The notes below the pieces were generated by a model. That model was not told the origin of the DNA. It did not search any database and worked only from the letters and a program-made list of their open reading frames with translations. A stretch of DNA of 64,000 nt, taken from assembly GCA_003336485.1 (NCBI GenBank), contig QENH01000201.1, positions 10,704 to 74,703 of the forward strand, written 5' to 3'. The DNA is from Candidatus Methanophagales archaeon (GTDB lineage Archaea; Halobacteriota; Syntropharchaeia; Alkanophagales; Methanospirareceae). Shown here piece after piece: positions 9,367 to 49,018 of the stretch (the first letter of the stretch is position 1; each line of letters opens with the position of its first letter). Both the position numbers and the translations under genes were made by a program.

Positions 9367-9386
9367 GCACTATACGCCATAAAATA

Positions 9387-16536: not shown

Positions 16537-16859
16537 TTTCAGTCTTTTCGTATTTATATATATATGTAGTGAAACTCACAAATATTAAGTTACCCGAACT
16601 GTATCCTTTTTGGGTACACTATTTACGGAGAGTTCCCTAGCAAAGCTAAAAACCCACGAGATTTTACAAGATTTTGAGGGTTTATAATGGATAAAAGAGC
16701 CAATAAAGCACTTAAGCCTGATCCATATTACTATTTTCTCGTGTAAATCTGTGTAATCTTGTGGTCTATTTACCAAAAGAAAACTATCTTGGAATATACG
16801 TATAGATATATAAACAAAATTTTAGGTCATATAGGGATAGATAGAGAGGGGAAGGAAAA

Positions 16860-22947: not shown

Positions 22948-22990
22948 GCATCTCCTCCAGTTTCCTTTACTCATCCACTCATTCACCCAT

Positions 22991-23986: not shown

Positions 23987-24044
23987 CTTCCCTCATCACG
24001 CTAATCCACGTAATTATTTAAGGACATATCCACATATAAAACTG

Positions 24045-25232
24045 ATGCTAAACTTGTCGCCAGAAGATACCGTTCTGTTATGCTGCACGAGAACGAGCAT
24101 GAATAAAACCACCATATATAAACTCAAAGAGGCTTTAAGTAGACGATTGAACTGGAATCATATCTTAGAAAATGCTCTGCAACATGGTATTGCACCCTTA
24201 TTATATCACAATTTAAGTGAGATGGCTGATGTGCCAGAAGAGGTTATGGAACATCTGCGAATGCAGTATAATGCGAATCTTGCTCGGAACATGTTAGTTT
24301 ACAATGAGCTGAGCAATGTTTTAAATGCGTTTGAACACGCAGGGATAGAGGTGGTTGTTCTAAAGGGTGCTGCGCTTGCAGAGACGGTTTATCAAGATAT
24401 AGGTTTGAGACCTTTTAGTGACGTTGACCTTTTGGTTAGAAAGAAGGATTTGCAGAGGGCAAAAAAGAAGCTGGTTGAGCTGGGCTATATATTGGATGAG
24501 GATGTCTCGCCGGAGAGGTATAACGAGGATTTCGGTTGTGATTTGTATTATGCCGGCAAAGTAAATGTCCTGGAGATTCACTGGGATATAATGCGGAAGA
24601 CTAAAAGTGACAGATATGCGAGGATCAAAATAGAACATATCTGGGAAAGAGCAGTACCAGCGAAGATAGCAGGTGCTGATACACGCATGATGTCGCCGGA
24701 AGATATGCTGTTACACTTTTGTGTGCACCTACCAAAGCATCGCTATAATCGGTTAATCTGGCTATGTGACGTTTTAGAAGTTATAGAGCATACAGATATT
24801 GATTGGGGATATGTGCTAGAGAGCGCCAAAAAATACCGGACAATGGCGTATATGTACTATGGTCTACATTTTACGGATGTGCTATTAGGTTGTGATATAC
24901 CCGAAAAGGTACTAAACGCGCTGAAGCCGCATCGGCCCGAGATAATGGTGCTGAGCACGGTATTAAAAGATGTCTTGTCGCGCGAGCGGAAGATAATGCC
25001 GATTCTCAATTTGATGAAGTTATTGCTGATAGATAGATTTCAGGATAGAGTGAGATATTTATGTGAATATGTATTCCCACCAGTGGACTCGTTAGCACGT
25101 ATGTATTCGGTTTCGGGAAAAAAGGTGTATCTTTATTATTTCGTGCATCCCGTCTACGTGTGGCTTGAGACAGGCAAGCGCCTTATGGCAATCGTCAGTT
25201 CGAGAGCAAAGAAGCGTTACCGGTGGTTCTGA
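24045..25232 (+). CDS. putative nucleotidyltransferase (NTP_transf_5-like, family often found in RiPP/lasso clusters)
   Basis: ~396 aa from the ATG at 24045. The ORF-track extension from 23763 overlaps the ABC gene and reads as nonsense. GAALAETVYQDIGLRPFSDVDLLV matches the G...R.xxDxDLLV nucleotidyltransferase signature; helical C-terminal domain. Confidence 0.5.
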   Translation: MLNLSPEDTVLLCCTRTSMNKTTIYKLKEALSRRLNWNHILENALQHGIAPLLYHNLSEMADVPEEVMEHLRMQYNANLARNMLVYNELSNVLNAFEHAGIEVVVLKGAALAETVYQDIGLRPFSDVDLLVRKKDLQRAKKKLVELGYILDEDVSPERYNEDFGCDLYYAGKVNVLEIHWDIMRKTKSDRYARIKIEHIWERAVPAKIAGADTRMMSPEDMLLHFCVHLPKHRYNRLIWLCDVLEVIEHTDIDWGYVLESAKKYRTMAYMYYGLHFTDVLLGCDIPEKVLNALKPHRPEIMVLSTVLKDVLSRERKIMPILNLMKLLLIDRFQDRVRYLCEYVFPPVDSLARMYSVSGKKVYLYYFVHPVYVWLETGKRLMAIVSSRAKKRYRWF

Positions 25233-25253
25233 GTTGGTGTACGGAGACCAAAT

Positions 25254-25766
25254 TTATGTTTTATATACGACGGTAAAAAAGAGTTTCATAATTCTCCTCG
25301 CAATCCGATTCCCGTGCTTGAGATAATAAACCGAGCACGAAAAGAACGTTAGCATGAGATTGATAAACATCCCAAATCCGTTATTTAGTCTGATTATTCT
25401 GGTTCCTTTTCGTATTGCAATGACCTTGCCAATAACGTGTTCAGAACGGACGATCTCAGCAGTCGTTGTATTATCACCTTTTTGAAGAAAAGATAAACTA
25501 TCATATTTGCGAATGACCCTATGAACGATGAATTTATCGAGATTTTTGAACACGATAATGTCTCCAACCCGGATTTCAGCGGGTTTAACTGATTGAACCA
25601 GCACCTTATCACCGATTTGTATTAAAGGAATCATACTTCCGGAAAGAACAGTGAGCCACAACTTCTGCTTTTGGTTATACAGATCTTCCCAGAGGCCAAT
25701 GATTGCGTTTTGTGATAATTTCGGCTCTTGATCTAAATTCCCGTTGTTGTTGGTATAGCTTTGCAT
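25254..25766 (-). CDS. signal peptidase I, archaeal/eukaryal Sec11-SPC18 type (S26B)
   Basis: 170 aa; box B LSGSMIPLIQIGD, box C/D GDIIVFKNLDKFIVHRVI (His-type), box E KGDNTTT, C-terminal TM. Confidence 0.75.
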   Translation of the reverse strand: MQSYTNNNGNLDQEPKLSQNAIIGLWEDLYNQKQKLWLTVLSGSMIPLIQIGDKVLVQSVKPAEIRVGDIIVFKNLDKFIVHRVIRKYDSLSFLQKGDNTTTAEIVRSEHVIGKVIAIRKGTRIIRLNNGFGMFINLMLTFFSCSVYYLKHGNRIARRIMKLFFTVVYKT

Positions 25767-25856
25767 ATTTTGTATTTTCCCTGTTATTCCAATTGTTAGA
25801 AAGAATTGAGAAAATGCATAAGTAAGTAAGTAATTGTATATAATTTCTGTAATTGT

Positions 25857-25893
25857 AAAAAAATACCGCAGGGGCGAGCATAAACACGCCCCA
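25857..25893 (-). terminator. hairpin + oligo-T terminator-like element downstream of surface-protein gene A
   Basis: On the - strand: GGGGCG-tgtttatgc-TCGCCCC then tgcGGTATTTTTTT; one of three similar elements (see 35553 and 37501). Confidence 0.5.
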
Positions 25894-25930
25894 ACTCTTT
25901 CTTTTCTGTTATTTGTTTTACTATTTCACT

Positions 25931-28882
25931 TCATGGGTTTTTACGTATTTTTAATGGCCTACCTGATTGTGGAACACCAGTTACTACATGATGGTTGCCC
26001 ACAGCATCATCGTATTCCACTGTCCATTCTATCCCTTCGTTTGGATCCTGTGGATTGGTCATAGCCACCTCAAGCTCGAAGAAGTCATGACTCCAGGCAC
26101 CGCTACCTGCAGATATATCTCCCAATTCCACTTCACCATCAACGATGTTCACATTCGCAGGCGCATAGCTGATACTAGCAACTACGTTGTATGCGTCGCC
26201 GGGTCCGCAGTTCACAAAGTGAACGTCCATCCAGCTCCTGAAGAGGTCTGGTGACGGGTCCCATTCATAGCCTGGTATGTGGTATGCAGACCAGCGGTAT
26301 TTATCCGGACTAAGTTCTGGTTGTTGCACTTCGCGTACAATGATGTAATCCACCTTCGACTCCGTATCGCTGTCGCCATCCGCATCTGTTACCGTTAACG
26401 TTACCGTATAAGTCCCTTCTGTCGTGTACTCGTTCGTTGGGTTCTGATCCGTGCTTGTATCACCATCGCCAAAGTCCCAGTTCCAAGAGACTATGCAATC
26501 ATAGGAACGCGATAGATCAGTAAATTCAACGGTTAGAGGTGCGGATCCTGAAGTTGGTTCTGCATTGAAATCAGCAGTTGGCTCTGTATCTGTTACTGTC
26601 GCTGTCGTAGTATCAGGCTCTGAATCCTGATTACCGTCATTAACTACCAAAGTAACTGTATATGTCCCATCTTGTGTGTAATTATGACTTGGATTCACTC
26701 CTGTTCCGGTGTTCTCATCGCCGAAGTCCCAGTAGTAAGTTAGTGGCATGCCTTCCGGGTCATAAGAGCCAGAGCCACCAAATGCTATTGGAACGCCCTC
26801 AACGCCTGTGTAATTGCCATTTGCATCAGCTACTGGCGGTTGGTCTACGGATATCCCTTCATCTGTCGAATCTATAACATAGGGATGGTCAGAGATATCG
26901 CTAATAGGGACGTTATCTGCTAGAACAATGGTAGTATCTCTTGTTGAGACTCTAAGAACGAATGTAGCCGAGGGTTCCGGATCGGGTCCTGATTCTGGTA
27001 TCACAGTTATTCGATAAAACCCTATCTTTTTTTCTGTTAGTAATATTCTATCATCCAAATCGCCATCACCATCTATATCGGGTTCTATGTACATAGCACC
27101 TGGAATTTCATTTCCTTCTTTGTTTATGGTTAAATTATCGGGGTCCGTCAGAATTAACTCAATTGGATTGCAAATGCCGTCTATTTGCATCTGCCATTCA
27201 AAGGGTTCAATAGTAGCCGTGGTTGTGTTTACATCGTATGCTCCTTCATCGTCTGTTACGTTCAGTGAGACATTGTAAGTCCCATTTTTCAGGTATGTAT
27301 TCTCTGGGCTCTCGCCTGTTCCTGTGTTTCCATCGCCGAAGTCCCAGGCGAAGGAGGCAATGCTGCCGTCTAGGTCATAGGACCCGCTTCCGTTAAACAC
27401 TATCGGGTCTCCTTCCGTTCCGGTGTATGGTCCATTCGGGTCAGATACTGGCGGTATGTTCTCGCTCGTCACTGTTATATAATCCACCTTCGTCTCCGTA
27501 TCGCTGTCGCCATCCGCATCTGTTACCGTTAACGTTACCGTATAAGTCCCTTCTGTTGTGTACTCGTTCGTTGGGTTCTGATCCGTGCTCGTATTTCCAT
27601 CGCCAAAGTCCCAGTTCCATGTTGTAATACTATCGTATGATGTTGATTCATCTGTGAAGATAACTGTTAATGGCTTTAAGCCACTTGTCGGTGTAGCGGA
27701 GAAGTTTGCCGTTGGTTCGCTATCGTCAATCGTAGCCGTTGTTGTTTTCTCGTCGTATGCGCCTTCATCGTCTGTTACGTTCAGTGAGACAGTATAAATG
27801 CCGTCATCTACGTATATATTCATAGGATTCTCGCCTGTTCCTGTGTTTCCATCGCCGAAGTCCCAGGCATAGGTGGCAATGCTGCCGTCTAGGTCATAGG
27901 ACCCGCTTCCGTTAAACACTATCGGGTCTCCTTCCGTTCCGCTGTAAGGCCCATTCGGATCAGATACTGGCGGTATGTTCTGAGGTAGAGCGATAGTAAC
28001 AGCTCTAATTCTCTCGCTATTTGACCAGTCATCATCTATTGGAATACTTGCATTCACGATGATATTATACTCGCCAGGAGTAAGTGCACTTGTATTCCAG
28101 GAATCGCCGCCGCTCGGATAGAGATAATGACCCATCTTTATGGTCCATCTATGCGTAACTACTGTCTGAGTCCATGTTGAATTTGCAACTTTTACTGTTA
28201 CATCCACAGATTCATTATAATCCCCTTCATTCACAATTTTGTAGTAAATGCGATACGTGTTACCAATGGTCAAGTTCTCGCTTGCTGATATATCCGTTCC
28301 ATTATACTTGATTTTTATACCGTTCGTATCTGGCGCGTAATCCGTTGAGACGTTTATGTCATGAATCGGTACTGCATCACAGGAGAATATGCCGTCTATC
28401 GCAATACATGTATCGGGCGTTCCGGTTTGATCTGTACATGCAAGTCCTGTAAAGTTCAGATTCGAAACACCTACCGTAACAGGACTGAACGTCAACTTTG
28501 CGAGACAATATGTGCCTGCGGGTACACCACCACCCGAATACTGCAAGTCTACAAACGCTATCCTGTAGGTGTTAGGTGCACCTCCGGGTTTGTAGTTCCA
28601 GCTTTCAAGAGTAAATGCAGGACCTGTACCGGGTCCGGTGGTGTCACCACTGGTGATATTAACAATGGTTGAGTCAATAGTCAAGTCGGCGTTACAACTT
28701 TTAAATCCCGCATCAGTTGTGAAATTCAAGTTTACAATCACATCAGTACCAAGTGCCGAACTTCCGTGCTGTGGATCTAAGTAAAAGGTACCCGTCGCTG
28801 AGACCGCGTTAATGCAAACTGCTACTAGCAGTATACTTAATATCACTAAAATTTTATTGTTCATTTTTTTCTCTTTCACCAC
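25931..28882 (-). CDS. giant secreted scaffoldin-like protein: cohesin-like N-terminal domain, tandem PKD domains, conserved C-terminal module
   Basis: 983 aa; signal peptide. N-terminal ~140 aa align to the cohesin pattern of the pseudogene at 48131. At least five PKD domains (WDFGDGNT motifs). Last ~130 aa (YRWSAYHIPGYEWDP...VHFVN.GPG) are shared with gene 35631-37376. Likely ATG start at 28863. Confidence 0.7.
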   Translation of the reverse strand: MVKEKKMNNKILVILSILLVAVCINAVSATGTFYLDPQHGSSALGTDVIVNLNFTTDAGFKSCNADLTIDSTIVNITSGDTTGPGTGPAFTLESWNYKPGGAPNTYRIAFVDLQYSGGGVPAGTYCLAKLTFSPVTVGVSNLNFTGLACTDQTGTPDTCIAIDGIFSCDAVPIHDINVSTDYAPDTNGIKIKYNGTDISASENLTIGNTYRIYYKIVNEGDYNESVDVTVKVANSTWTQTVVTHRWTIKMGHYLYPSGGDSWNTSALTPGEYNIIVNASIPIDDDWSNSERIRAVTIALPQNIPPVSDPNGPYSGTEGDPIVFNGSGSYDLDGSIATYAWDFGDGNTGTGENPMNIYVDDGIYTVSLNVTDDEGAYDEKTTTATIDDSEPTANFSATPTSGLKPLTVIFTDESTSYDSITTWNWDFGDGNTSTDQNPTNEYTTEGTYTVTLTVTDADGDSDTETKVDYITVTSENIPPVSDPNGPYTGTEGDPIVFNGSGSYDLDGSIASFAWDFGDGNTGTGESPENTYLKNGTYNVSLNVTDDEGAYDVNTTTATIEPFEWQMQIDGICNPIELILTDPDNLTINKEGNEIPGAMYIEPDIDGDGDLDDRILLTEKKIGFYRITVIPESGPDPEPSATFVLRVSTRDTTIVLADNVPISDISDHPYVIDSTDEGISVDQPPVADANGNYTGVEGVPIAFGGSGSYDPEGMPLTYYWDFGDENTGTGVNPSHNYTQDGTYTVTLVVNDGNQDSEPDTTTATVTDTEPTADFNAEPTSGSAPLTVEFTDLSRSYDCIVSWNWDFGDGDTSTDQNPTNEYTTEGTYTVTLTVTDADGDSDTESKVDYIIVREVQQPELSPDKYRWSAYHIPGYEWDPSPDLFRSWMDVHFVNCGPGDAYNVVASISYAPANVNIVDGEVELGDISAGSGAWSHDFFELEVAMTNPQDPNEGIEWTVEYDDAVGNHHVVTGVPQSGRPLKIRKNP
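26335..26581. repeat. near-identical PKD-domain DNA repeat (partner 27460-27709)
   Basis: Encodes TADFNAEPTSG...WNWDFGDGDTSTDQNPTNEYTTEGTYTVTLTVTDADGDSDTE vs TANFSATPTSG..., with long identical nucleotide runs. Confidence 0.7.
27172..27451. repeat. near-identical PKD-domain DNA repeat (partner 27712-27985)
   Basis: Encodes PPVSDPNGPYTGTEGDPIVFNGSGSYDLDGSIASFAWDFGDGNTGTGE vs ...YSGTEG...SIATYAWDFGDGNTGTGE. Confidence 0.65.
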
Positions 28883-29400
28883 CTATTTTTATCTTTTGAT
28901 CCGTTGTTGCCACATCATGCGTACAATATCCTGCTTTAACAGCAACAACTTCATTCCAGCTTTTTTTCATAAATACCATGCTTTTTTCCTCCTTTTTTTC
29001 TTTGACTTTAACTTGAACATGAACAATTCAGAACAGAACCACTTACATAGTTATTCCAAATTGCTATAACGTCATTTGTATCTATAATGCCATTATCAAG
29101 TGCCGTGTCTGCTGCCCATTTGTTCTTTAAAGATATACCTGCAGTGTAACAATCCCAAACGGCTATAACATCCGTTGTGTCAACGCTACCATCTTCATTC
29201 GGATCTCCGCATATCCACTTCTTGGTCCTGAAGTTATTGCCCTCATTACTCTCACTCACCGTATTATTGCAATCTGCACATACTGTTATGTTATCCTCTA
29301 AAGGTGTATATACCCACATATAATCGAAACATCCAATATAACTCTCGTTATGTGATAACGCCTCAGTTACGCAATCGTATGCCACTTCAGTACCATCGAC
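28883..29400. repeat. cassette repeat: 5' leader of gene A plus the 3' CARDB-like/dockerin module of gene B (partner 32617-33150)
   Basis: Intergenic 28883-29007 vs 32617-32760 and coding 3' ends 29008-~29330 vs 32761-~33085 are >90% identical (the last ~110 aa of B and C are near-identical); identity decays further into the beta-helix region. Confidence 0.85.
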
Positions 29401-32400
29401 AAGCAGGGAAGTGTTATGCCCTGCCTGAGCGGTTCCAGTCCCTACGTTCGTTACGTTATAGCATATTGTGCAGTTTTCTGGCCAGCAGACCCATATACCC
29501 GTTATCTTCAGGTCCGGCAGCGATGTTGCTACTTCTACCAACGGATGCCAATCACCACCTTGCTTTATATTCCCAGAAGAATTATAAGGCCGCATTGTAT
29601 CTCCAAGTCCATCTTCATTGTTGTCAACGCCTATGTAATCGCCCCAATAGTTACCACCCAACCAAGAACCGCCGATTATGTTCTCGCCGGAAGTCGACGT
29701 GGTGTTCCATTCGTTGGTTCCATCATCATATGCGTTATTCGTATTGTCAAAGTAGTTGTTGTAGATGCTGTTATCGTCTGAAGATGTTAGATTGACGCCG
29801 ATGCCATTATTAGTTACGATGTTACCCGCGATCATAACGTTGTCAGAAACGTTCACCCAGATACCATCAGCATTATCGGTAATCATGTTCTCGCTGACAT
29901 TGACACCAGTAGGGAAACCCGCACCAACCGGTCTACTCCTCGGAGGTAGCATTGCCGAGCTATAATCTCCGTCCGGAAGTGCAAGAGCAGTTGGCTGCGC
30001 TGCTGCAACTCCCTCATTTTCGATCACCGGCATATCGTCATCGTCTGCCTCTATGCCACTTGCAAGACCAGCCATCGTACCAGAGCCAGAGACAGAATCG
30101 AGCATAAAACCGTAGTCACAGTTGTTAACTATGGTATTGCCATGAATTGCGACATTTGTGAAGGAAAACACTTTGATGCCATGAGCCTGATTTGATGCAG
30201 TGTTTTCTGCAATGTAGTTATCTGAGATAATGGCACCTGATCCCGCACCCATATAAATTCCGCATCCAAGAGTGTCGCTAACACCATTATTTATCATTGT
30301 ATTTCCCATAATCTTCAAGTTCGAGGGTCCATACGCAGCGAATATACCATGATAGAAGTTATTGGATGCCGTGTTATTGCAAATCGTAATGTTACTGGTT
30401 GGCGAGTGGTAAACAAAAATGCCATGATAGCCGTTGTTATTCGCATCGTTATCACAAATCGTGGCGTTGCTACTTTGGTATACTAGGATTCCATGTGCCT
30501 CACACTCCGAAGCAATGTTATTGATAACGGTGTTGTTAGAAGATGCGCTATAAAGATATATACCATACGCATTCTGCCTTGCAATGTTATCAGTCATTAT
30601 CGCATTATTGGATGCCCATGATAGAAGTCCTGTCCCGACATCGGTAAGATTGTTGTAATTAACATTGTTCCCCGAGACTACACTATTATCGGAATGATAC
30701 AGACGTATACCCTCCCAACCATTATGATTTGCTGTGTTGCCGACCAGATAGTTGTAATCGGAATAGGTGATACATATACCCATATATATCTCATTGAATC
30801 TTGCTGAATTGTTGATCACATGATTGTTATCGGATTTATATAAATAAATACCATACCAACAGTTCGAATCCGCGGTATTGTCAATAATGGTGTTGCTATC
30901 TGCGAAATATAAAGAAATACCCCTATGGTTCTGTGTGCAGTTGTTATTCGAAATGCGGCAGTGGCTCACGCCTTTATTAAGATAAATCCCTGCCTTACCC
31001 TCCGTAGCGCCTCCCCGTATGGTAAACCCACTGATATTGACATGACCCATATAGATATCAAAGACATGGTCAGCTATATCTGCTGCACTCACAATACAGT
31101 TTGCAGACCCATTTGCCGACCGGATTGTTAACTGTTCGAGGACATCTACATTCTCAGTGTAAGTCCCATCATGCACGATTATCGTATCGCCTGCATTTGC
31201 ATTACTTACCGCAGATTGTATCGGCGTTGCACTCGGATTAACAGGGTCGGGCTCAATCCACCAGCCAATTTCATTGACATAAATAGTACGCGGTGGAACT
31301 TCTGGTTTCGTAAGCGGCAGAAGATCTATGTTATTTGTCGTTAAAATATAAGGGTCATCACAGATCCCATCGCCATCTGTATCGGTGCACATCTCCGAGA
31401 ATCCGGTGCCGGACGGTGTTGCCCAATAGTTCCCTCCCAGATATGAACCGCCAACAATGTTTGTTTCCAATGTTTTGGGAATGTTCCAGTCGTTCGCATA
31501 GACAGTTGTACCAGCAAAATTGATGTTCTTCGCATTGCAGAAATAGTTGTTATGAATTAGATTTGCACCTGCAGCTTTTATGTTTATTCCCCCGTCAACA
31601 TTGTTTCTTATGTACGAGTTATTGATTATTGTAGATGAACTGCTGTCGACATAGACCCCCGCAAAACTGTTAGTGCCAGACGCAATGTGTGTTAACTTGT
31701 TGGATGGGCTATGAAAAAGATAGATGCCGCATTGAGAGTTAGAATTCGTTTCTGTACTTTCCAGTGTGTTGAAGGAACAGTAGCAAACATAAATGCCTTG
31801 GTGATGGTTGTTGTTGCATTTAATATTCTGCAACTTGTTTGTGTCGGCATTGTCGAGGAGGACGCCACAGAAATTATTGGATGATACAATATCCGTTAGA
31901 TTTGTGTTGTCTGTATAAAATAGACGCAAACCGTTGTTCTTCAAGCTGTCCGAGCCTCGGATTGTAATGTTATTCAGTACAGAGTTATCGGCATTGCAGA
32001 GGTACAGAGCAGAAAACACCTGATCTTGTAGATTTACCGATTGATTGTAAAACGCAATTGGTCTGCCTCCGGAACCAGTTACATTTATCAGACGGTTGTT
32101 GCACTCAGACAGTGAATTTGGTCGAAAATAGAAGTCATAATGTGAATTCTCCTGCAGAATACAATCGCGTATTGTGTTTGCAGTGCTATAAAAAATCGTG
32201 ATTCCAGCATCGCGATTGGAATATGCCGTTATATTTTGTATTGTGTTATTGGACGCTTTAAATAGTTCGATACCATAGCGGAAACCAGTAATTTCGCAGT
32301 TCTTTAACGTATTATCGTCTGAGTCGCTTGATAGATAGATTCCAAAACCGGAGAAGTCGCCATCTCCAGAGATTATATGACCTCCGCCGTTAAAAGTTAT

Positions 32401-32616
32401 GCCATCCTTGCCATTGAACTCGATGCAGGTGCCGTCATGACCGATTATGTCTGCAGTGAGCATAACCTCGTCACCATAGCTTGCACTCTGTATCTTCGTG
32501 TTGCAGTCTGAGCAGTTGACGCAGGTCGTCAACGCATTTACTGAGGGTACCAATACCAGCATAAAAATGACGAGTGCCAATGCCATTCCCAATTTTATCC
32601 GTTCTTCTCTTCCCAT
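29008..32616 (-). CDS. giant secreted parallel beta-helix protein with CARDB-like domain and C-terminal type-I dockerin
   Basis: 1202 aa; signal peptide; dozens of PbH1-like rungs; C-terminus [19 protein letters not shown]...[17 protein letters not shown] is two dockerin-type Ca-binding repeats; ends NCSCSS. Confidence 0.75.
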   Translation of the reverse strand: MGREERIKLGMALALVIFMLVLVPSVNALTTCVNCSDCNTKIQSASYGDEVMLTADIIGHDGTCIEFNGKDGITFNGGGHIISGDGDFSGFGIYLSSDSDDNTLKNCEITGFRYGIELFKASNNTIQNITAYSNRDAGITIFYSTANTIRDCILQENSHYDFYFRPNSLSECNNRLINVTGSGGRPIAFYNQSVNLQDQVFSALYLCNADNSVLNNITIRGSDSLKNNGLRLFYTDNTNLTDIVSSNNFCGVLLDNADTNKLQNIKCNNNHHQGIYVCYCSFNTLESTETNSNSQCGIYLFHSPSNKLTHIASGTNSFAGVYVDSSSSTIINNSYIRNNVDGGINIKAAGANLIHNNYFCNAKNINFAGTTVYANDWNIPKTLETNIVGGSYLGGNYWATPSGTGFSEMCTDTDGDGICDDPYILTTNNIDLLPLTKPEVPPRTIYVNEIGWWIEPDPVNPSATPIQSAVSNANAGDTIIVHDGTYTENVDVLEQLTIRSANGSANCIVSAADIADHVFDIYMGHVNISGFTIRGGATEGKAGIYLNKGVSHCRISNNNCTQNHRGISLYFADSNTIIDNTADSNCWYGIYLYKSDNNHVINNSARFNEIYMGICITYSDYNYLVGNTANHNGWEGIRLYHSDNSVVSGNNVNYNNLTDVGTGLLSWASNNAIMTDNIARQNAYGIYLYSASSNNTVINNIASECEAHGILVYQSSNATICDNDANNNGYHGIFVYHSPTSNITICNNTASNNFYHGIFAAYGPSNLKIMGNTMINNGVSDTLGCGIYMGAGSGAIISDNYIAENTASNQAHGIKVFSFTNVAIHGNTIVNNCDYGFMLDSVSGSGTMAGLASGIEADDDDMPVIENEGVAAAQPTALALPDGDYSSAMLPPRSRPVGAGFPTGVNVSENMITDNADGIWVNVSDNVMIAGNIVTNNGIGVNLTSSDDNSIYNNYFDNTNNAYDDGTNEWNTTSTSGENIIGGSWLGGNYWGDYIGVDNNEDGLGDTMRPYNSSGNIKQGGDWHPLVEVATSLPDLKITGIWVCWPENCTICYNVTNVGTGTAQAGHNTSLLVDGTEVAYDCVTEALSHNESYIGCFDYMWVYTPLEDNITVCADCNNTVSESNEGNNFRTKKWICGDPNEDGSVDTTDVIAVWDCYTAGISLKNKWAADTALDNGIIDTNDVIAIWNNYVSGSVLNCSCSS

Positions 32617-32760
32617 TTTCTTTTCTTCCTTTTTACCACCTATATTTTTATCTTCTGATGTGCTGTTGCCGCATCATGCGTGCAATATCCTACTCTAACA
32701 GCAACAACTTCATTACTGCTTTTTTCATGAATACATTGTTTATTCCCCGCCTCTTTTTCT

Positions 32761-35472
32761 TTAACCTGAACATGAGCAATTCAGAACAGAACCACTTACA
32801 TAGTTATTCCAAATTGCTATAACGTCATTTGTATCTATCACGCCATTATCAAGTGCCGTGTCTGCAGCCCATTTGTTCTTTAAAGGGACGCCTGCAATGA
32901 AATAATCCCAAACGGCTATAACATCCGTTGTGTCAACGCTACCATCTTCATTCGGATCTCCGCATATCCACTTCTTGGTCCTGAAGTTATTGCCCTCATT
33001 ACTCTCACTCACAGTATTATTACAATCTGCGCATACGGTTATGTTATCCTCTAAAGGTGTGTACACCCACATATAATCGAAATATGCGATGTAGCTCTGG
33101 TTATGCTCAAGTGCTACAACTACACAATCGTATGCCCGCATAGTACCGTCAACAGATAGCGAAGTGTCATGCCCAGCCAGAGCGGTTCCAGTTCCTATGT
33201 TCGTTACGTTATAGCATATGGTGCAGTTATCGGGCCAGCAGACCCTTATGTCTGTTACCTTCAAGTCAGGCAGTAATACCGCTTCTTCCGTCAACGGATG
33301 CCTATCCCCTCCCGTTGTTATATTGCCCGACGAGTTATAAGGAAGCAGTGTATTTCCTAAGCCATCGCCATCGTTATCTACGCCCGCATAATCGGACCAA
33401 TAATTCCCGCCAAGATAATGACCGCCGATTATGTTCGTTCCCTCTCTTTTCGTAATGTTCCATGCGTTGTTGCCGTTATCATTAGCATTATTCGTGTTCT
33501 CGAAGTAGTTATTGTAAATCAGGTTATTGCCGCTCGAATCGTACAGGTAGATGCCAAATCCGTTGTTCGAGTTCGCAGTGTTGTCCGAGATGTTGTTGTA
33601 GTGCGACTCGGACAAGCCGATGCCAGCCCAGTTGCCCGATGCGGTAATATCGGAAACGTTGCTGTAATCAGCATAGCTGAGATAAATCCCTGCCTTAGCG
33701 TCTTCTGTTGCGCCCGTTACATGGAACCCGGATATATCCACATAATCCGCAGTCACCTCAAAGACATGATCATCAGAATCAGCAGCCTGAACAATTGTAT
33801 CCGCGTGATTACCTGATGTTGATCTTACGGTCAAAGACTTGTAAACAGCCACATTCTCTGTATAAGTCCCCGGATCTACAATAATTGTATGCCCATCCAA
33901 GGTATTGGGGTCATCTATTGCCGCTTGGATAGTTACGAAACTTTCGCTTGTGTTTATATTGTAAATCGGAGGTACTCTAGCCACTATTCTAGTACGTAGA
34001 CAAGCGTTCCAACCTTCGTCTGCCAGATCCGTCCACGAACCGCTATCAGTGTGCCTGATAAAGCTCACATTCGTCTGTATAGGAGGATCAACCACCCCTG
34101 AAAATTCACACTCAATAGGTATAGGGTGACCATAGCCCGGTGTGGTCATCTTAACGCCAACAGTAAATTGCTGACCAGCGTATATTGAAATCGAGTCGCT
34201 CAGTGGTATCGAGTAATAGCCAAACTCTTGACAGTTACCGATTTGATGCGCAAGCTCAGTACCAAAAAAGCCGTCCCAAATATATATTTCATACTGCGCA
34301 TTGTTGCTCGTGGTCCAGAAATCAACATGGGTTAAATCACCAAACTGAATTGCTGTATAGACACTTGCCATCCAAGCACTGTTGTCCCCATAGCCCACAG
34401 AAGCTACGAAGCCTGCCTCATCCCAGTAACGAAGTTCTTCATTCGGGTTGTCATCCGTATATTTAAGATATGCTATTTCATTGACACAACTTGAGTCATA
34501 AGCAAGATAGAAGAAACCATTATTCCCCCAACCTGTTCCCCAACTGTTTTTGGCTATCCAGGCTCCTATTCCTGCATGGCTGGGGTTGGGATGTGGAACA
34601 GCATCGTCCCAACCGATAATAGATACTAAGTGGTTAATGTTTCCAGAGCATGGATAGTTGTCGTAAATATACCCATAAGTCGAATTCCAGTATAGATAAC
34701 TTGGATCGTGCTGGTAAGCCACTATAACGGGTTCCTGATTATATACCGCATTTTTTATCGCGTCTATTTGTGACCCGTCATTCGTTACAAGTCTATATCC
34801 GTTAACTTTCTTAATTGGAGGGCAATCATCACATACACACGAGCCATCACAGTTCAATGCGTAGCCGCCGTAAGGATTGCATGTTTCCGAAACAGAACCT
34901 TTCCTGATAAAAACCTCGCTTGCAAGCCAACTCCAGCCACCTGCATTACAGGGGTCATCCGAGTCGTCATACATATAAACCCATGAACGGTCAACGCACA
35001 AGGCTACGCTCTGCTCAGAAAAATTGTATGCTGCTCCTTCATCCATTAGAACCGCCGATTCTAATACCGAGGTAGTGCCAAAAACCCAACAAGTCTCACA
35101 AGGGTCCTGGTCCTTGACCGTTGTCACCTTACCGTAATCGCGCCAGTCGAAGCTGCTGGGGAGTGCGTATGGCGCCGGCAACCCTTTAACTGGAAGCTGA
35201 TCCAGGTGACTTAAATCCACGGGTGGTGGAATATAGCCATAAAATGTCTCGGTTGGATTATCCCGATGTGCTTCAAAATCGGGATTTAGTGGAGCCAATT
35301 GAGGTTTTTCCGCTGCTCCGCCTCCATCTCGGCTATCGTCAGTAGCCGCGCTAATTCCAGCAGACAATGTTAGTGCACTTGTAACTACGGTCAGTATCAA
35401 TATTGCCGCTGTCAATATGGCTATTGGTTTTTTCATCGCATTCATATTCTCTACTATAAAACAATTGTGCAA
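32761..35472 (-). CDS. secreted papain-like (C1) cysteine peptidase fused to beta-helix, CARDB-like domain and C-terminal dockerin
   Basis: 903 aa; signal peptide/TM anchor; C1 active-site blocks [11 protein letters not shown] (Cys), [10 protein letters not shown] (His), [16 protein letters not shown] (Asn); C-terminal ~110 aa near-identical to gene B including the dockerin repeats. Confidence 0.75.
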
Positions 35473-35552
35473 ATCACCATATATTCTTTTGTTTTTTTTT
35501 CAGCAACTTCATGGATTTGCACCATGCAAGTGACATCGTTTTTCTTTTTTTT

Positions 35553-35590
35553 CTAAAAAATAACGCCGGGGCGAATGAACTCACCCCAAC
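35553..35590 (-). terminator. hairpin + oligo-T terminator-like element downstream of gene D
   Basis: On the - strand: GGGGTGAGTTCATTCGCCCC then GGCGTTATTTTTT; homologous to the element at 37501-37541. Confidence 0.5.
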
Positions 35591-35630
35591 TCTTTTTGCA
35601 CTTTGTTTTATATTTCACTTCATTGGCTGT

Positions 35631-37376
35631 TTACGAGGGCGCACAGAATTCCGGAACATTCTCTATCACATGATACACACCATCCGCATCGTAGTATTCC
35701 ACCATCCATAGTATTCCTTCCTCAGGAGGCGGTAGTGGCACGTAGGTCATATCCACCGCAAGCACGAAGAAGTCCGAACTCCAAGCGCTTCCGGAAGCTG
35801 GTATATCTCCCAACGTCACTTCTCCGTCCACGATGCCCACATTCGCCGGGGAATCGGTGATGGTTGCAGTTACGCCGTAAGCGTTACCGGGTCCCCAGTT
35901 CACGAAGTGAACATCCGTCCAGCTCCTGAATAGTGCCGGGAACGGGTCCCATTCATAGCTTGGGACATGGTATGCAGACCAGCGATATTCATCCGGGCAG
36001 AGATTCGCCTCGCCAACAATGACTTTCCATTCCTTAGTCACTTGGTTCGAGGTTATGGTGACCTCTTGGCTATTCACAAAACTCGCTTCGATAACATCCG
36101 TGCCAGGCAAGGTCCCTGTGTAGGTAAACGTTGCTTCTCCATTGACGTCAGTTGTATCTGTGTCTGTCTGCCCATCATGTGGACCTGAAACGATAGTGAA
36201 GGTCACTTCACGGTCCACGATCGGGTTCCCTAAGTCATCCTGCACCGTTGCGGTAACTGTATGCTCGCTGCCTACCGGATTGGTTGCAGAGGTTGGAGTT
36301 AACAGAATACCTTCTCCCACGACTGCTGTTGTAGACGCAAGGAACAGCGATGCAAAGAAGATGTTGTCGTCGTTCGATGGATTTATGGTATCAACGAATA
36401 TATTGGTATCTCCATCCGATACGAATGGTATGAGATTGTACAATTCGTCGTCATAACGGGGACTGGTACTATCACCATTTGCGTAAGGATCGGGTGGGTT
36501 GGCATTGCTATCTCCCACGCCTCCGACCGTCAGAAGTGCACCGTTGTTCGCTGATCCATCATCTTGACCACCGGCTGATGATGTCAAACGCACGCCATTA
36601 ACATCCACTTCGCTGTGTTGGCCATAATACGAGGAAGATTGGTAGCCAAATGATATCCCTAGAGACATATCGAGCACTAGGTTCGGGTCGCTCGTATCGA
36701 TCGGTTCAGCTAATCCAATTGCGAAAGTATCGCCCGCAACATCCTGCGCTCCGAAAAGAAGCACAATTGTGTTTTCGGTCGCCTGGTTCGGATCATCGAA
36801 GATTACCGCTAGGATTGAACCGTCAAGATTGATCGTTTCGATGATCTCAAGATCCACAATTCCCGCTGGTGCCGCATCAACGATGGGCGCTACGATTGCA
36901 GTCACATCAGACCATGCACTGTTTGCATTCACGGGATCATGGCTATCCCAGTTGACGTTGTTGCCGTTGATCTTTACGGCTCCGTCCGGCAATGGCCCGC
37001 CACAACTGCCCCAGACATCGGCTGCCGCCATATAGGCTGACCTAACCGTTGCTCCGGCTGGCTTTTCCACCTGGATAGTTCCAGCAGAGGTAAATGTGCC
37101 GAGGCCATCTATCGAGAGACTGATCAGTCCGGTTTCTGTAATCTCCGGATCGATTGAGCGCGTCGGTGTCGATAGTTTACTTGTAGCCATATCAGTTCCT
37201 GGTACATTTGGGTCCGCAGATGGTTTAGTGTCCTCCAATGACGAAGGTATCTTGCCAATAATATTCGATTTACTTGGGACCGCATATACCGGTGTAGCAA
37301 ATGCTGATAAAATCAACACAATTACTAAACAAATGCACGCACCTGTTACATAGCTTTTTCTTTCCATTTTTTTCAT
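35631..37376 (-). CDS. secreted Ig-like (Big) domain protein with the C-terminal module shared with gene A
   Basis: 581 aa; signal peptide; Big-like domain (VTATVQDDLGNPIVDREVTFTIVSGPHDG); C-terminal ~130 aa ~60% identical to the C-terminus of 25931-28882. Confidence 0.65.
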   Translation of the reverse strand: MKKMERKSYVTGACICLVIVLILSAFATPVYAVPSKSNIIGKIPSSLEDTKPSADPNVPGTDMATSKLSTPTRSIDPEITETGLISLSIDGLGTFTSAGTIQVEKPAGATVRSAYMAAADVWGSCGGPLPDGAVKINGNNVNWDSHDPVNANSAWSDVTAIVAPIVDAAPAGIVDLEIIETINLDGSILAVIFDDPNQATENTIVLLFGAQDVAGDTFAIGLAEPIDTSDPNLVLDMSLGISFGYQSSSYYGQHSEVDVNGVRLTSSAGGQDDGSANNGALLTVGGVGDSNANPPDPYANGDSTSPRYDDELYNLIPFVSDGDTNIFVDTINPSNDDNIFFASLFLASTTAVVGEGILLTPTSATNPVGSEHTVTATVQDDLGNPIVDREVTFTIVSGPHDGQTDTDTTDVNGEATFTYTGTLPGTDVIEASFVNSQEVTITSNQVTKEWKVIVGEANLCPDEYRWSAYHVPSYEWDPFPALFRSWTDVHFVNWGPGNAYGVTATITDSPANVGIVDGEVTLGDIPASGSAWSSDFFVLAVDMTYVPLPPPEEGILWMVEYYDADGVYHVIENVPEFCAPS

Positions 37377-37500
37377 TTCACCTCCTAATTTTTTGGGGTA
37401 TTTATATAGCGCCCCTCCTCGGCGCCCTCTCCCTATTTCTCAGCCATCTAATGGATTCGCACCATACAGATGACATCTTTTTCATTGCTTTTCGTTCTGG

Positions 37501-37541
37501 CAAAAAAAAATAACGCCAAGGCGAGTGAACTCACGCCTCCT
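37501..37541 (-). terminator. hairpin + T9 terminator-like element immediately after the 46-aa ORF
   Basis: On the - strand: GGCGTGAGTTCACTCGCC then TTGGCGTTATTTTTTTTT, ~35 nt after the peptide stop codon. Confidence 0.5.
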
Positions 37542-37564
37542 CGACGCTCTTATTTGGTCACCAT

Positions 37565-37705
37565 TCATCCTTCATTTCCTCCGCCTCCACAGCATAGATT
37601 AAAAAATGGGTCCATCTGCGGAATAGGCCCTTCATATTGACCATAAGCTCCGATTTCGATCGTTTCTGACTTGACCTCAGGCTTATTGTATTCTTCTCGT
37701 TTCAT
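37565..37705 (-). CDS. 46-aa candidate RiPP precursor peptide (MKREEYNKPEVKSETIEIGAYGQYEGPIPQMDPFFNLCCGGGGNEG)
   Basis: Unannotated short ORF. Its ATG overlaps the last 23 nt of the rSAM/SPASM gene. A canonical Shine-Dalgarno AAGGAGGTGA sits 12 nt upstream. Stop is followed by a hairpin + T-run. C-terminal Cys-Cys-Gly4 core-like segment. Confidence 0.45.
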   Translation of the reverse strand: MKREEYNKPEVKSETIEIGAYGQYEGPIPQMDPFFNLCCGGGGNEG

Positions 37706-38822
37706 CTTCTTTTTTTATCACCTCCTTTTGGTTTTTTGTAATACCGCCCGGCTCAAAGCCGGGACTCTGCATTACCGTGACTTGCGAAGATCCCCGCCAT
37801 TGTGCGTACCTACATGCGCTCGGCGATGCCCCCACTATATCGCCTGTTTCAAGATAAACCACACCGGGACATCTAATGCAGTACTGTGCCAAATCACACT
37901 TGGAACACACGGGTAAATCAGCGGAAGTTAAATTCCGCAATCGTTTCAACTCTTCGCTTGGCTGCATATGCCATATCTCTTTAAAACTCCTTTCTCTCAA
38001 ATTACCTACCGCCATAGGCATCATCACGCATGGACACACAATCCCGCTTGGTGATACGCTGCAAGCTGCGTTCCCAGCTTTGCATTTGAATCTATGCGCA
38101 GGATCTTTTTCGCCTATTTCTATTAGATAACTGAGATCAAAATCGTGTCTCGGCAGATATCTCTCCATGTCCTCAAAGGATAGGTCGTACTGTTGAGGTT
38201 CTAACGAGCCGTTCTTCATCGGCGCGATTCCTGCACTTATCCTGTGACGGACACCTAACTGTTCACACATAGCTTTGAGATCGTCGGATTCATGGATATT
38301 CAAATTCATAAGTGATGTTTTTACGGTAACTTCTATTCCCGCCTTGACCAGATCCTTGATAGCAGCAACGGTGCGTTCAAAAGAGCCCGCTACCCGAGTA
38401 ATGTGATCATGCGTTTTTGCTGTTGCGCCATAGAGACTGAGTTCAAACTTAATCAGCTTCAGCGTCCTTATTTCGTCCATCATTTCAGCGGTAATCAACG
38501 CGCCATTGGTCATAAACGTAAGGAAAAAGCCTTTTCTACTGGCATATCTCGCAATCTCAAACAAGTCATCACGAGTGAAAATCTCGCCACCTGTAAAGGA
38601 AAGGTAAAAGGTACCCATATCCACTAGTTGGTCTATTATGTCTTTAATCTCCTCTGACGACAATTCAACGTCATTATCATTTACCATATAACAATGCCTG
38701 CATTTTAGATTGCATTTACTTGTAAGTTCCATTTGAACAGCATAAGGTATATTTTCCCGAATGCAGGTCGCAACCAACTTTTTACCCAAACCCGTAGAGT
38801 ATTCAACGGTCATCGCCACCAC
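37683..38822 (-). CDS. radical SAM / SPASM-domain peptide-maturase-like enzyme
   Basis: 379 aa; CNLKCRHCY (CxxxCxxC) rSAM cluster near the N-terminus; C-terminal SPASM Cys constellation (CKAGNAACSVSPSGIVCPC...CSKCDLAQYCIRCPG). Confidence 0.85.
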   Translation of the reverse strand: MVAMTVEYSTGLGKKLVATCIRENIPYAVQMELTSKCNLKCRHCYMVNDNDVELSSEEIKDIIDQLVDMGTFYLSFTGGEIFTRDDLFEIARYASRKGFFLTFMTNGALITAEMMDEIRTLKLIKFELSLYGATAKTHDHITRVAGSFERTVAAIKDLVKAGIEVTVKTSLMNLNIHESDDLKAMCEQLGVRHRISAGIAPMKNGSLEPQQYDLSFEDMERYLPRHDFDLSYLIEIGEKDPAHRFKCKAGNAACSVSPSGIVCPCVMMPMAVGNLRERSFKEIWHMQPSEELKRLRNLTSADLPVCSKCDLAQYCIRCPGVVYLETGDIVGASPSACRYAQWRGSSQVTVMQSPGFEPGGITKNQKEVIKKEDETRRIQ

Positions 38823-39129
38823 CTTCTGCTTCTGTTTCTGCTTCGGCGTTTCTAATCTGCAAAATCTTTTTCGCTACCAGTTGCTCTGCAAATTCCTGTA
38901 CATCTGCCTGTGCTACTTCAAGACTTACATCAAAACGCTCACAAGTCAGCGATATTATTTCTTTTATCCTTCTTGTACCATCGGCTAATTCCCAGATAGC
39001 ACTTCCTACCTTGTTAAGCGTGTGAATCGCACGCCCATCTGCAGTTAGAATAACGACTCCATCGCCTATCTCTCGCCATACTAATTCATCCGACCTACGT
39101 AGGTAGCTATCTAACGGAAACATATTCAC
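38803..39129 (-). CDS. PqqD-family protein (RiPP recognition element)
   Basis: 108 aa; PqqD pattern (VILTADGRAIHTLNKVGSAIWELADGTRRIKEIISLTCERFDVSLEVAQADVQEFAEQL); overlaps the upstream kinase (ATGA) and the downstream rSAM gene by 20 nt. Confidence 0.7.
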   Translation of the reverse strand: MNMFPLDSYLRRSDELVWREIGDGVVILTADGRAIHTLNKVGSAIWELADGTRRIKEIISLTCERFDVSLEVAQADVQEFAEQLVAKKILQIRNAEAETEAEGGGDDR

Positions 39130-40004
39130 ACCCCCATTTCCAGGTTATCAATAGAATCCCAGAAACTTTTATCCGGCAAAAACAGCAGTTCGTAAAATGG
39201 CACCTCGCTTGCTACATCGACACAGAATCCCATCATCTCCCGAAACGTTTCTTTCCTATTCGTCGAAAGCAAAGTATCTGAATACACAACTTCTCTCACG
39301 AATCTTGCTACAAAATCTCTTTCACTGATTTTTTTTATGATATTCGCCTCCCCATGTCGGATTAAAAATATTGCATGCAACGGCACAGATCCATTGCTAA
39401 TATCTAAAAAGTCACCACGAATCGGAGTGCTACCAACCGTATAATGCCCATTTACTTTGTTGACAATCACCGATTCGTCATTCAAAATCGTGTAATCCAA
39501 ATCAGAGGATAATTTAGCTATCGTTGACTTTCCGCTTTCCGAAGGTCCGGAGAATAGGTAGCCAATTCCTTCTCTTGAAACTGCGCAGCCATGTATCAAG
39601 AAGTTATTTCTGCTATCATTTTTTTCTTTCAATAGTGTATAATATACCTGAAACAGAAACTGCTCAAAAATACGTACGCTCCGTTCAGAGAAAAGTGCAT
39701 TTTTTGCATTTATTCGGCATTGCTTTTTTCCCGGATCCAGAGTCCCGGTTATCAAGCCAGAATGGAAATCGAAATTATTCCCGTCAACGGTCTTGGACAT
39801 AAGGAGAGAATTAGGTAGGTTAATCTCTTCTTTATGCATAACGATGTTTACATCTATGGTGAGGTCAGGCGCATTTTCAGATAGGAAGCCCTTATAATAC
39901 GCACGTACCGATGCGCAATAGTCAGGGTCTTTAAACCTTAACGAGCAACATACATCGCCTATTTGCAATCGGCATTCCGTATATTCTATATCGGAATTGG
40001 CCAT
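39126..40004 (-). CDS. HPr kinase/phosphorylase C-terminal-domain-like kinase (RiPP-associated kinase family)
   Basis: 292 aa; HGCAVSREGIGYLFSGPSESGKSTIAKL matches the HprK P-loop region (HG..V...G.G.L..G.SG.GKS); first gene of an overlapping three-gene operon. Confidence 0.65.
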   Translation of the reverse strand: MANSDIEYTECRLQIGDVCCSLRFKDPDYCASVRAYYKGFLSENAPDLTIDVNIVMHKEEINLPNSLLMSKTVDGNNFDFHSGLITGTLDPGKKQCRINAKNALFSERSVRIFEQFLFQVYYTLLKEKNDSRNNFLIHGCAVSREGIGYLFSGPSESGKSTIAKLSSDLDYTILNDESVIVNKVNGHYTVGSTPIRGDFLDISNGSVPLHAIFLIRHGEANIIKKISERDFVARFVREVVYSDTLLSTNRKETFREMMGFCVDVASEVPFYELLFLPDKSFWDSIDNLEMGV

Positions 40005-40065
40005 CTTCCGCTTTTCACCCCCTCGCCCTCAACATTTTTTTTTGTATGTGCTATCCATAGCAGAG

Positions 40066-40073
40066 GTTTTATA
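40066..40073 (-). promoter_or_regulatory. palindromic TATA-like element TTTATAAA ~60 nt upstream of the kinase start
   Basis: Only strong AT box in the 213-bp gap between eno and the kinase gene. Confidence 0.3.
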
Positions 40074-40217
40074 AATAGTTGTAAGTAGATCTAACACGCC
40101 TTTGAAACATATAGAACCATAATAAGAGTTAGAAAATAAATATCCGTATCGACTATGAAAAGATTTTCGCGTCTTCTGGTCCTCACCACTTGTTTGTATA
40201 CTCGAATCAATAAATCA

Positions 40218-48130: not shown

Positions 48131-49018
48131 GTGCCAAACGCAATTACGGGACAGCCTCTCGAAGGCTCACCCGATATAAAAAAGGTGAAAGGAGAAGAGG
48201 TAACATTGGCGAGAGATGGTTACCATATCAGAGAACGGTTCTCTCAGCAAAGTTCAGTCTTTCGATCCAGAAAAAGTTTTAAATGAGTTCTTTGATACGA
48301 TTCCCAGCACTACGGATGTTACCAGGCTTAACCTTCGAATGTTTTAGAAGCAACAGAAGTTACAAAAGGCGATTTGACAACTGATTCACTATTTGAGTAC
48401 AATATAATGGCTGGAACGATAATGATAAGCCTGGCAGATGCGGAAGAATTTAGTGGCAATGGCTCTATTGCTTACGTCACATTCAATGTGATTGGTGCTG
48501 CAGATTCAACCTCACCTCTTCAGATTGTTGCACTTGCAGCGAACCGAGCTGAAGATTACGAAGTTCTGACGATTCCTACCAATGATGGTGTGTTTAGAGT
48601 TATATTTATAAGCACGGAGGAAAGTGGAAGTTTGACCGTCCGCATGAGCAACACAACAGGAGCAAACGGAAGTACAGTAGAAGTGCCGATCAACCTTGAA
48701 GGCACCACAGAAATCGGAAGTAGGGACATCGTTTTGAATTATGATGCCGATGTCTTAAGTGCAGTGGATGTCAACGCCGGCGCACTTGGTAAAAACGCGC
48801 TAATCGAAGCGAATACCGCGCGAGAAGGAGAAGTTATAATCGCTCTGGCGGACTCGTCAGGAATAAATGGCGATGGTGCAGTTGCAAGTGTCGCCTTGGA
48901 GGTGATAGGCGATGCCGGCACAACGAGCTATCTAACGTTGGATGAGGTTTTGGTGCATAACCTCGATCTGGGAGAGATAATACCAACTACAGTGAACGGA
49001 ACGTTTGAGGTTATTTGA
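48131..49018 (+). pseudogene. frameshifted tandem-cohesin gene remnant
   Basis: ORF 48374-49018 holds one complete cohesin-like module (VEVPINLEGTTEIGSRDIVLNYDADVLSAV...) and the C-terminal half of another. The missing N-terminal half is recognisable upstream in two other frames (VPNAITGQPLEGSPDI; QSFDPEKVLNEF) with an in-frame TAA at 48327. Confidence 0.55.

Follow-up and report, generated by a model that had tools for sequence, protein, structure and literature searches.

A probable cohesin-dockerin display set within a conserved radical SAM/peptide island of an ANME-1 archaeon

Four adjacent genes for large secreted proteins (A to D) were analysed in the window, which is the 64,000-nucleotide stretch of contig QENH01000201.1 (Candidatus Methanophagales archaeon, assembly GCA_003336485.1, positions 10,704 to 74,703). 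Comparisons of sequences, profiles and a structure model suggest that these genes fairly probably encode a cohesin-dockerin set of a non-cellulosomal kind, displayed on the cell surface of an ANME-1 (anaerobic methanotrophic archaea, group 1) archaeon, and that they are grafted into a conserved island for peptide maturation and secretion. Proteins A to D would be exported by the Sec pathway, and their signal peptides would be cut by the SipW-like signal peptidase I of the island. Judging by the adjacency of the genes, A would bind B or C through a Ca-dependent contact of cohesin and dockerin, one molecule at a time. The C-terminal module that A and D have in common might keep these two proteins at the cell surface or assemble them there.

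A first-pass annotation, made by a model from the letters of the DNA, had described four co-oriented genes for secreted proteins. These genes are real: the four open reading frames (ORFs) lie on the minus strand (25931-37376, Table 1), and each opens with an N-terminal hydrophobic signal-like segment, as read from the translations. The host is an ANME-1 (Methanophagales) archaeon: the flanking genes are 71-80% identical to those of the ANME-1 metagenome-assembled genome (MAG) G60ANME1, and one homologue of the B and C tails is named Methanophagales. This agrees with the ANME-type archaeon suggested earlier.

Predicted cohesin and dockerin domains

Protein A contains, in order, a signal peptide, the predicted cohesin, a CARDB-like domain, three PKD repeats, an insert of ~120 amino acids, two further PKD repeats, and the C-terminal module. 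The five PKD repeats score above the Pfam thresholds (PKD_4, 323 bits in five stretches), as had been expected downstream of the cohesin. The internal PKD duplications are 88-96% identical at the DNA level. No family was assigned to the insert between repeats 3 and 4 (26900-27200, aa ~560-680; EPFEWQMQIDG...DEGISVDQ). Translation of A probably starts at the ATG at 28864, because the fragment P0037 begins with MNNKILV and this ATG has a B-like ribosome-binding context.

The N-terminal domain of A is predicted to be a genuine, very divergent cohesin, which supports the first-pass annotation. Two proteins found by phmmer with the A head (P0044 and P0045, E ~1e-5) carry Pfam Cohesin in the matched regions (131 and 75 bits, respectively). 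In PDB, the top matches of a profile of the A subfamily are type II cohesins (E 0.0064). The same profile was aligned by hhalign with canonical cohesins, including the remnant described below, across 120 columns (97.8%, E 8e-13). The AlphaFold 2 (AF2) model of the head is a nine-stranded flattened β-sandwich (jelly-roll), like the solved cohesins. Some points weigh against this assignment. The Pfam Cohesin family (PF00963) gave 19.6 bits (E 0.0011) on the isolated head; the gathering threshold is 24.1 bits, which is an operational cut-off rather than a biological feature. The Pfam scan of the whole protein reported no Cohesin, and the weak match appeared only when the domain was scanned alone. 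The AF2 input alignment contained canonical cohesins, a possible source of bias in the model. The head is also very divergent: a full HMMER scan of 1.84e9 protein representatives gave only nine matches to the A head, a word-indexed homology search gave no homologue, and phmmer against PDB gave no cohesin match; it took the full HMMER scan and profiles to reveal the homology.

A separate cohesin remnant is located elsewhere in the window (Table 1). It lacks a signal peptide, and the frame translations show stops and frame changes upstream of it; it is probably a decayed multi-cohesin gene. The A head had been said to align residue by residue with the cohesins of this pseudogene, at 48131. That match was not found (BLASTP, E 0.4, not significant), and the hidden Markov model (HMM) of the A subfamily gave no match on the remnant; the homology stands at the profile level, in the hhalign comparison above. 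When the window was scanned with HMMs in all six reading frames, a single cohesin was found in A, and others only in the remnant. Protein A would thus be a monovalent adaptor, not a scaffoldin. Pfam finds no carbohydrate-binding module (CBM) and no glycoside hydrolase family in A to D. The terms scaffoldin-like and cellulosome-like were therefore abandoned, and so was the proposed multi-enzyme complex, as one cohesin cannot hold several enzymes at once.

The closest relative of the A cohesin is P0038 (86% identical), which is fused to a PEP-CTERM-like anchor or tail. Another A-related cohesin occurs in P0039, inside a protein with both cohesin and dockerin. P0038 is encoded at locus L046 (10001-11059; Logan SRR29278628) in a run of small co-directional ORFans, together with an MCM helicase (phrog_10371) and an HNH endonuclease. 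These surroundings look like a mobile element or provirus. The IMG/VR viral contigs were scanned for the A-type cohesin, and no match was found.

Protein B consists of a signal peptide, three blocks of NosD/parallel β-helix repeats (CASH/NosD type), a CARDB domain, and the dockerin. The Pfam scores are 306.6 bits for NosD, 199.7 for Beta_helix and 41.7 for CARDB, with 6-7 NosD/Beta_helix stretches; TIGR03804 was matched in 10 stretches. Protein C contains a signal peptide, Peptidase_C1 (104-329), Lectin_like (350-493), NosD (~520-697), CARDB (730-832), and the dockerin (833-903). The Peptidase_C1 domain (PF00112) scores 124.6 bits against a threshold of 20.7. The catalytic Gln, Cys, His and Asn, which we take to correspond to those of papain, are all present, and a KNSWG motif can be read in the translation. 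Protein C is thus predicted to be a catalytically intact papain-family peptidase. The papain-like peptidase and β-helix payloads proposed in the first pass were both recovered by these Pfam matches.

The C-termini of B and C are predicted to be dockerins. Their last 298 residues share 74% identity, and 769 nt of DNA share 82%. Phmmer with the C tail against PDB gave 19 matches (best E 6e-4), and in 17 of them the target is a dockerin module or an enzyme bearing one. The same CARDB and dockerin tail was found in 28 metagenomic homologues, and precomputed PF00404 annotation is present in 13 of them. A profile of this tail family matched 33 PDB entries (best E 3e-15), including 30 dockerins or dockerin-bearing proteins and three EF-hand Ca-binding proteins, with alignment across profile positions 2-63 of 73. 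The assignment is based on these PDB matches, on PF00404 in the homologues, and on the profile E value. Two observations weigh against it. Pfam Dockerin_1 (PF00404) on the isolated tails scores 15.6 bits for C and 12.6 bits for B, and the threshold is 22.9. The second dockerin segment has a one-residue insertion and an Ala at position 3, followed by VIAIW. The first segment has a canonical Ca loop followed by VIAVW. The description of two canonical Ca-binding repeats is hence correct for the dockerin identity and for loop 1, but not for loop 2.

The dockerins of B and C differ at six of 58 aligned positions, none of which lies in the two helix segments. The same specificity is expected from these identical helices. 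In the homologues, the second loop reads DVNxDGxVTxxD. The dockerin family is flanked by an invariant W-x-C-G-D and by C-x-C, and a Cys-rich CARDB always precedes it. In the CARDB-dockerin tails P0009-P0028, the two repeats are nearly identical within each protein and strongly different between proteins. This pattern fits concerted evolution, and would agree with numerous specificities and with binding in two modes. Three dockerin repeats are present in P0016 and P0028.

The shared C-terminal module and the conserved island

Proteins A and D have in common a distinct C-terminal module, as the first-pass annotation had noticed. The two copies are 61% identical across 127 amino acids (E 2e-44) and 75% identical in DNA. 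No Pfam or NCBIfam family matches this module (~125 aa), and only eight clusters contain it among 5.8 billion proteins. With two exceptions, the proteins seen have it at the C-terminus, and stand-alone secreted copies exist. A Pro/Thr linker, a transmembrane segment and an RRRR tail are additional features of the relative P0001. Most modules contain Cys near both ends (LCPDEYRW ... VPEFC); both Cys are missing in A, P0002 and P0006. Protein D consists of a signal peptide, an orphan N-terminal region (aa ~33-356), Big_1 (371-442; Pfam, 40.8 bits), and the module (454-580, nt 35637-36017). For the D head (~320 aa), no homologue was found in Pfam, NCBIfam, PDB or 45 fetched loci. The module had been suggested to be a second anchoring module. 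The fold search gave generic matches only, so that an anchoring role is conjecture, which weighs against this step of the proposed mechanism. The idea can be reframed: the module-tailed proteins, i.e. D and the core of A, are native members of a conserved peptide-maturation island with radical SAM (rSAM) and PqqD genes, and the module is the hallmark of this island. The first-pass annotation, which covered A to D only, had not recognized the island.

This island contains a ScmC-like kinase, PqqD, an rSAM/SPASM enzyme, a Cys-terminated peptide of 40-46 amino acids, one to three module-tailed proteins with variable heads, a signal peptidase I, NTP_transf_5, and an ABC-2 exporter. In G60ANME1, the genes flanking the module gene are syntenic and 71-80% identical (75-80% for the NTP_transf_5/ABC part). 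A single protein of 593 amino acids, with an unrelated head and the same module, is encoded there between the rSAM gene and the signal peptidase gene. The signal peptidase I of the window matched TIGR02228 (72.8 bits; cut-off 51.85) as well as NF046067, and it is kept downstream of the module genes at other loci. A metagenome scan identified 32 further module loci, and cassette genes are present in 19 of them. The rSAM/peptide genes were found in 10 of the 13 loci with at least 1.5 kb of upstream flank; signal peptidase I, NTP_transf_5 or ABC genes were found in 12 of the 20 loci with at least 1.5 kb of downstream flank. The module-tailed genes stand in tandem, one to three at a time, between the cassette and the signal peptidase end. 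Cohesin and dockerin profiles detected neither domain in any of the 32 loci. Moreover, A-like cores (CARDB-like, PKD, and module; 61-72% identical) without a cohesin head occur at L017-L019 and L029. These two observations indicate that D and the core of A are native to the island, and that B, C and the cohesin head of A are additions in this lineage.

The small ORF that follows the rSAM gene is the obvious candidate for the precursor of a ribosomally synthesized and post-translationally modified peptide (RiPP). Homologues (51-74% identity) follow the rSAM gene in 16 other loci, for example at L003 (8403-8525). The consensus is EEYxKPEIRSEEIE-G-YGEY-PIPQMQPFFGLCC, or LCPPCK at the end, and the C-terminus contains LCC or LCPPC. 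No Pfam or NCBIfam family matches this ORF. The module, the peptide, the ScmC-like/PqqD/rSAM maturase set, the SipW-like peptidase, NTP_transf_5 and the ABC-2 exporter might make up a single undescribed system. The modified peptide might be a ligand or cross-linker that fixes the module-tailed proteins to the envelope or to each other; such RiPP-dependent surface display would be extended here, by the cohesin, to dockerin proteins. This coupling is improbable on present evidence.

A Dehalococcoidales MAG (CAYVOV010000007.1, locus L005) encodes two module-tailed proteins (7157-10363 and 16072-17592). One is a PKD-containing protein of 1068 amino acids with a repetitive, unassigned N-terminal region; the other has 506 amino acids and is vWA-like, as read by eye. 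The ABC-2 exporter of L005 is 50-61% identical to that of the window, and only the module and the exporter are common to both loci. No ScmC/PqqD/rSAM cassette was found at L005. Its two radical SAM genes are of another type, being much larger (~650 aa) and with a CxxxCxxC motif in their translations. The module at L005 reflects either cross-domain transfer or mis-binning.

Literature searches on SynChlorMet, and on PqqD, radical SAM, signal peptidase and ANME-1 together, gave nothing relevant. The full-text literature searches gave no mention of the island, the module or the peptide family, and the island is not mentioned in the ANME survey passages drawn on here either.

Pairing and alternative explanations

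The pairing of A with B or C is predicted from several observations. The genes A, B and C are adjacent and co-directional, and A-related cohesins occur in the PEP-CTERM-like fusion P0038 and in the cohesin and dockerin protein P0039. At an independent locus (L012), a β-helix-CARDB-dockerin gene is followed by a gene for a PKD protein with a cohesin-like head. This head has no Pfam hit and an hhalign probability of 47%; its cohesin identity is unconfirmed, and L012 is suggestive only. Two points weigh against the pairing. Cohesin-dockerin specificity cannot be read from sequence. In addition, Timmers 2017 (PMC5244752) gives 77-80 cohesin domains and 112-149 dockerin domains for ANME-1 genomes, so that adjacency is only moderately informative.

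These numbers would also fit a different situation, in which both kinds of domain are genuine without being each other's partners. Each would bind proteins encoded elsewhere, and the adjacency would reflect the clustering of fast-evolving surface genes. Such an arrangement is rather unlikely. The pairings are stressed as unknown by Chadwick 2022 (PMC9012536), the head at L012 is unconfirmed, and the island relatives lack both domains, which suggests that no conserved need ties cohesin and dockerin to the island. However, the three cohesin and dockerin genes stand in direct succession, the dockerin helices of B and C stay identical while the remainder of the proteins diverged, and the 5' flanks of A and B (~85% identical) suggest co-regulated units. 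A further explanation, of very little probability, regards the locus as a hypervariable array of surface antigens or adhesins, which would be shaped by conflict with viruses and mobile elements or by partner recognition. The heads would be swapped, the A cohesin would come from a mobile element, and no stable enzyme display would be implied. The unrelated heads and conserved tails among the loci, the orphan head of D, the PKD duplications in A together with the duplicated 5' flanks, and the surroundings of P0038 are all consistent with it. Yet the mobile nature of L046 is putative, IMG/VR gave no match, and such an array is compatible with cohesin-dockerin docking; it accounts for the variability but not for the biochemistry.

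The role of the maturation cassette might also be read differently. Some rSAM/SPASM enzymes are known to act on whole proteins. With their module tails, D and A might themselves be the substrates of the rSAM/SPASM-PqqD pair, cross-linked before export as with anSME or QhpD, and the module would be the recognition or modification domain. The module gene comes next after the cassette in most loci, and most modules contain the two terminal Cys noted above. This is very unlikely, and was dropped as a candidate once the conserved small ORF had been found. With its leader-like N-terminus and C-terminal CC or CPPC, the small ORF separates the rSAM gene from the module gene wherever this region is present, and is a far better candidate. 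The module proteins bear Sec signal peptides, and both Cys are missing in the three proteins named above. A cohesin-dockerin display set added to the island is still the preferred explanation of the locus.

Layout of the window and comparison with known systems

On the minus strand, from 40004 to 25254, there are eight co-directional genes and one unannotated small ORF (Table 1). The 5' flanks of A (28883-29007) and B (32617-32760) are ~85% identical across ~100 nt, and both include an inverted repeat, GTTGTTGC...GCAACAAC (28903-28949 and 32662-32708). The flanks of C and D (35473-35630 and 37377-37682, minus strand) contain a different common element, which includes a hairpin and T-run. These similarities suggest that the duplication units take in the regulatory flanks. 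Rfam gave no match within 23000-41000, including the duplicated flanks. A sigma-70 promoter scan gave fewer sites than in shuffled sequences, and such a scan is uninformative for an archaeal host. The listed start of NTP_transf_5 (GTG at 23763) gives an overlap of ~220 nt with the convergent ABC ATPase gene. The first ~70 residues are matched by tblastn on the opposite strand of ABC genes, which suggests that the true start lies further downstream. Other neighbours include a secreted or membrane protein of 1139 amino acids with a Laminin_G_3 domain (44413-47832), an nSTAND NTPase of 921 amino acids within a low-GC (32%) stretch (51090-53855), and a repeat-rich protein of 302 amino acids (54149-55057).

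Table 1. Coordinates of the features of the locus and its surroundings (positions in the window)
Feature	Position	Strand	Remark
A	25931..28882	-	983 aa; ORF list
B	29008..32616	-	1202 aa; ORF list
C	32761..35472	-	903 aa; ORF list
D	35631..37376	-	581 aa; ORF list
Predicted cohesin of A	28367..28798	-	aa 29-172, very divergent subfamily
Predicted dockerin of B	29011..29223	-	aa 1132-1202; ends C-x-C; family HMM 81 bits
Predicted dockerin of C	32764..32976	-	aa 833-903; family HMM 87 bits
C-terminal Ig-like module of A	25955..26329	-	aa 852-976; unnamed family
Whole maturation cassette (ScmC-like, PqqD, rSAM/SPASM)	37683..40004	-	
ScmC-like P-loop protein	39126-40004	-	PF27840 ScmC matched on identical protein
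PqqD-family chaperone	38803-39129	-	Pfam PqqD
Radical SAM/SPASM enzyme	37683-38822	-	Pfam Radical_SAM + SPASM
Candidate RiPP precursor, 46-aa unannotated ORF MKREEYNKPEVKSETIEIGAYGQYEGPIPQMDPFFNLCCGGGGNEG	37565..37705	-	directly after rSAM gene
Archaeal-type (SipW-like) signal peptidase I	25254..25766	-	last gene of co-directional run
NTP_transf_5	23763-25232	+	Pfam; listed start over-extended into ATPase gene
ABC ATPase	22991-23986	-	Pfam
ABC-2 permease	22138-23022	-	Pfam
Hairpin + T-run after peptide ORF	37502-37542	-	-9.3 kcal/mol
Hairpin + T-run after D	35555..35591	-	-17.1 kcal/mol
Hairpin + T-run after A	25857-25896	-	-16.4 kcal/mol
Separate cohesin remnant	48332..49015	+	about 0.7 + 1 canonical modules; Pfam Cohesin 64.4 bits

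The locus was compared with several known systems. It resembles the clostridial cellulosome (C. thermocellum CipA and enzymes with type I dockerins) in the C-terminal dockerin on enzymes. However, besides the single cohesin and the absence of CBM and glycoside hydrolase, it has no SLH (S-layer homology) or sortase anchoring, and its payloads are a cysteine peptidase and β-helix proteins. In the tapA-sipW-tasA operon of Bacillus subtilis, a dedicated signal peptidase of the ER/archaeal type is encoded together with its secreted matrix proteins. The window similarly has a SipW-like signal peptidase I in one co-directional run with β-sandwich-rich secreted proteins. In contrast to tapA-sipW-tasA, no homology to TasA or camelysin is found, processing by the peptidase of the locus is putative, and the island adds rSAM/PqqD, the precursor peptide, NTP_transf_5, and the ABC-2 exporter.

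The SynChlorMet cassette (TIGR04248-04251) and other RiPP clusters with rSAM/SPASM and PqqD, such as those of sactipeptides and ranthipeptides, share with the island a row of ScmC-like, PqqD and rSAM/SPASM genes, a gene for a short peptide with Cys beside that of the maturase, and an ABC exporter nearby. However, the NCBIfam SynChlorMet scores are all far under the equivalog cut-offs (ScmC, 43.3 against 125; ScmD, 27.5 against 100; ScmE, 114.8 against 400; ScmF, 85.8 against 400), and there is one rSAM gene instead of two. The cassette is therefore a distant relative, not a member, of SynChlorMet. The peptide family is unnamed, and the island always occurs with module-tailed secreted proteins and signal peptidase I.

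Non-cellulosomal cohesin-dockerin proteins are known from archaea, including the Archaeoglobus fulgidus cohesin (PDB 2xdh; Bayer 1999 and Haimovitz 2008, as cited in PMC9012536). In both cases, secreted archaeal proteins without a link to cellulose bear single cohesins and dockerins. In contrast, the A head is below the Pfam threshold with nine relatives in 1.84e9 representatives, and it sits on a PKD stalk with an unnamed module at its end; the dockerins follow a Cys-rich CARDB between W-x-C-G-D and C-x-C, with an irregular loop 2. The ANME surveys describe ANME-1 and ANME-2 proteomes rich in dockerin and cohesin, with variable accessory domains including CARDB. There, the partners are stated to be unknown, and a role in surface attachment or cell-cell contact is proposed (Timmers 2017, PMC5244752; Chadwick 2022, PMC9012536). 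The organism group and the domain types are the same. However, those surveys give genome-wide domain lists, whereas the window offers concrete candidate partners, namely A and either B or C, and the locus is set in an rSAM/peptide island that is absent from the survey passages used here.

In summary, the locus is in kind an ordinary member of the cohesin/dockerin phenomenon published for ANME. It is unusual in the divergence of the cohesin, in the CARDB-dockerin-CxC tail, in the monovalent PKD stalk, and above all in its rSAM/peptide island setting. No ANME archaeon is in culture, and the ways in which these cells shape their extracellular space and reach their sulfate-reducing partners are still an open question. 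The published surveys list hundreds of cohesin and dockerin domains without pairings. The locus provides a small, directly testable trio: one cohesin, and two near-identical dockerins that bear a protease and a β-helix protein, respectively. In addition, the conserved island, the C-terminal domain family, and the precursor-peptide family are covered by neither Pfam nor NCBIfam and are not mentioned in the literature searched. Functional coupling of the peptide with the module would amount to a novel means of attaching proteins to the archaeal surface. Without such coupling, the island would still define a new class of rSAM RiPP in ANME-1.

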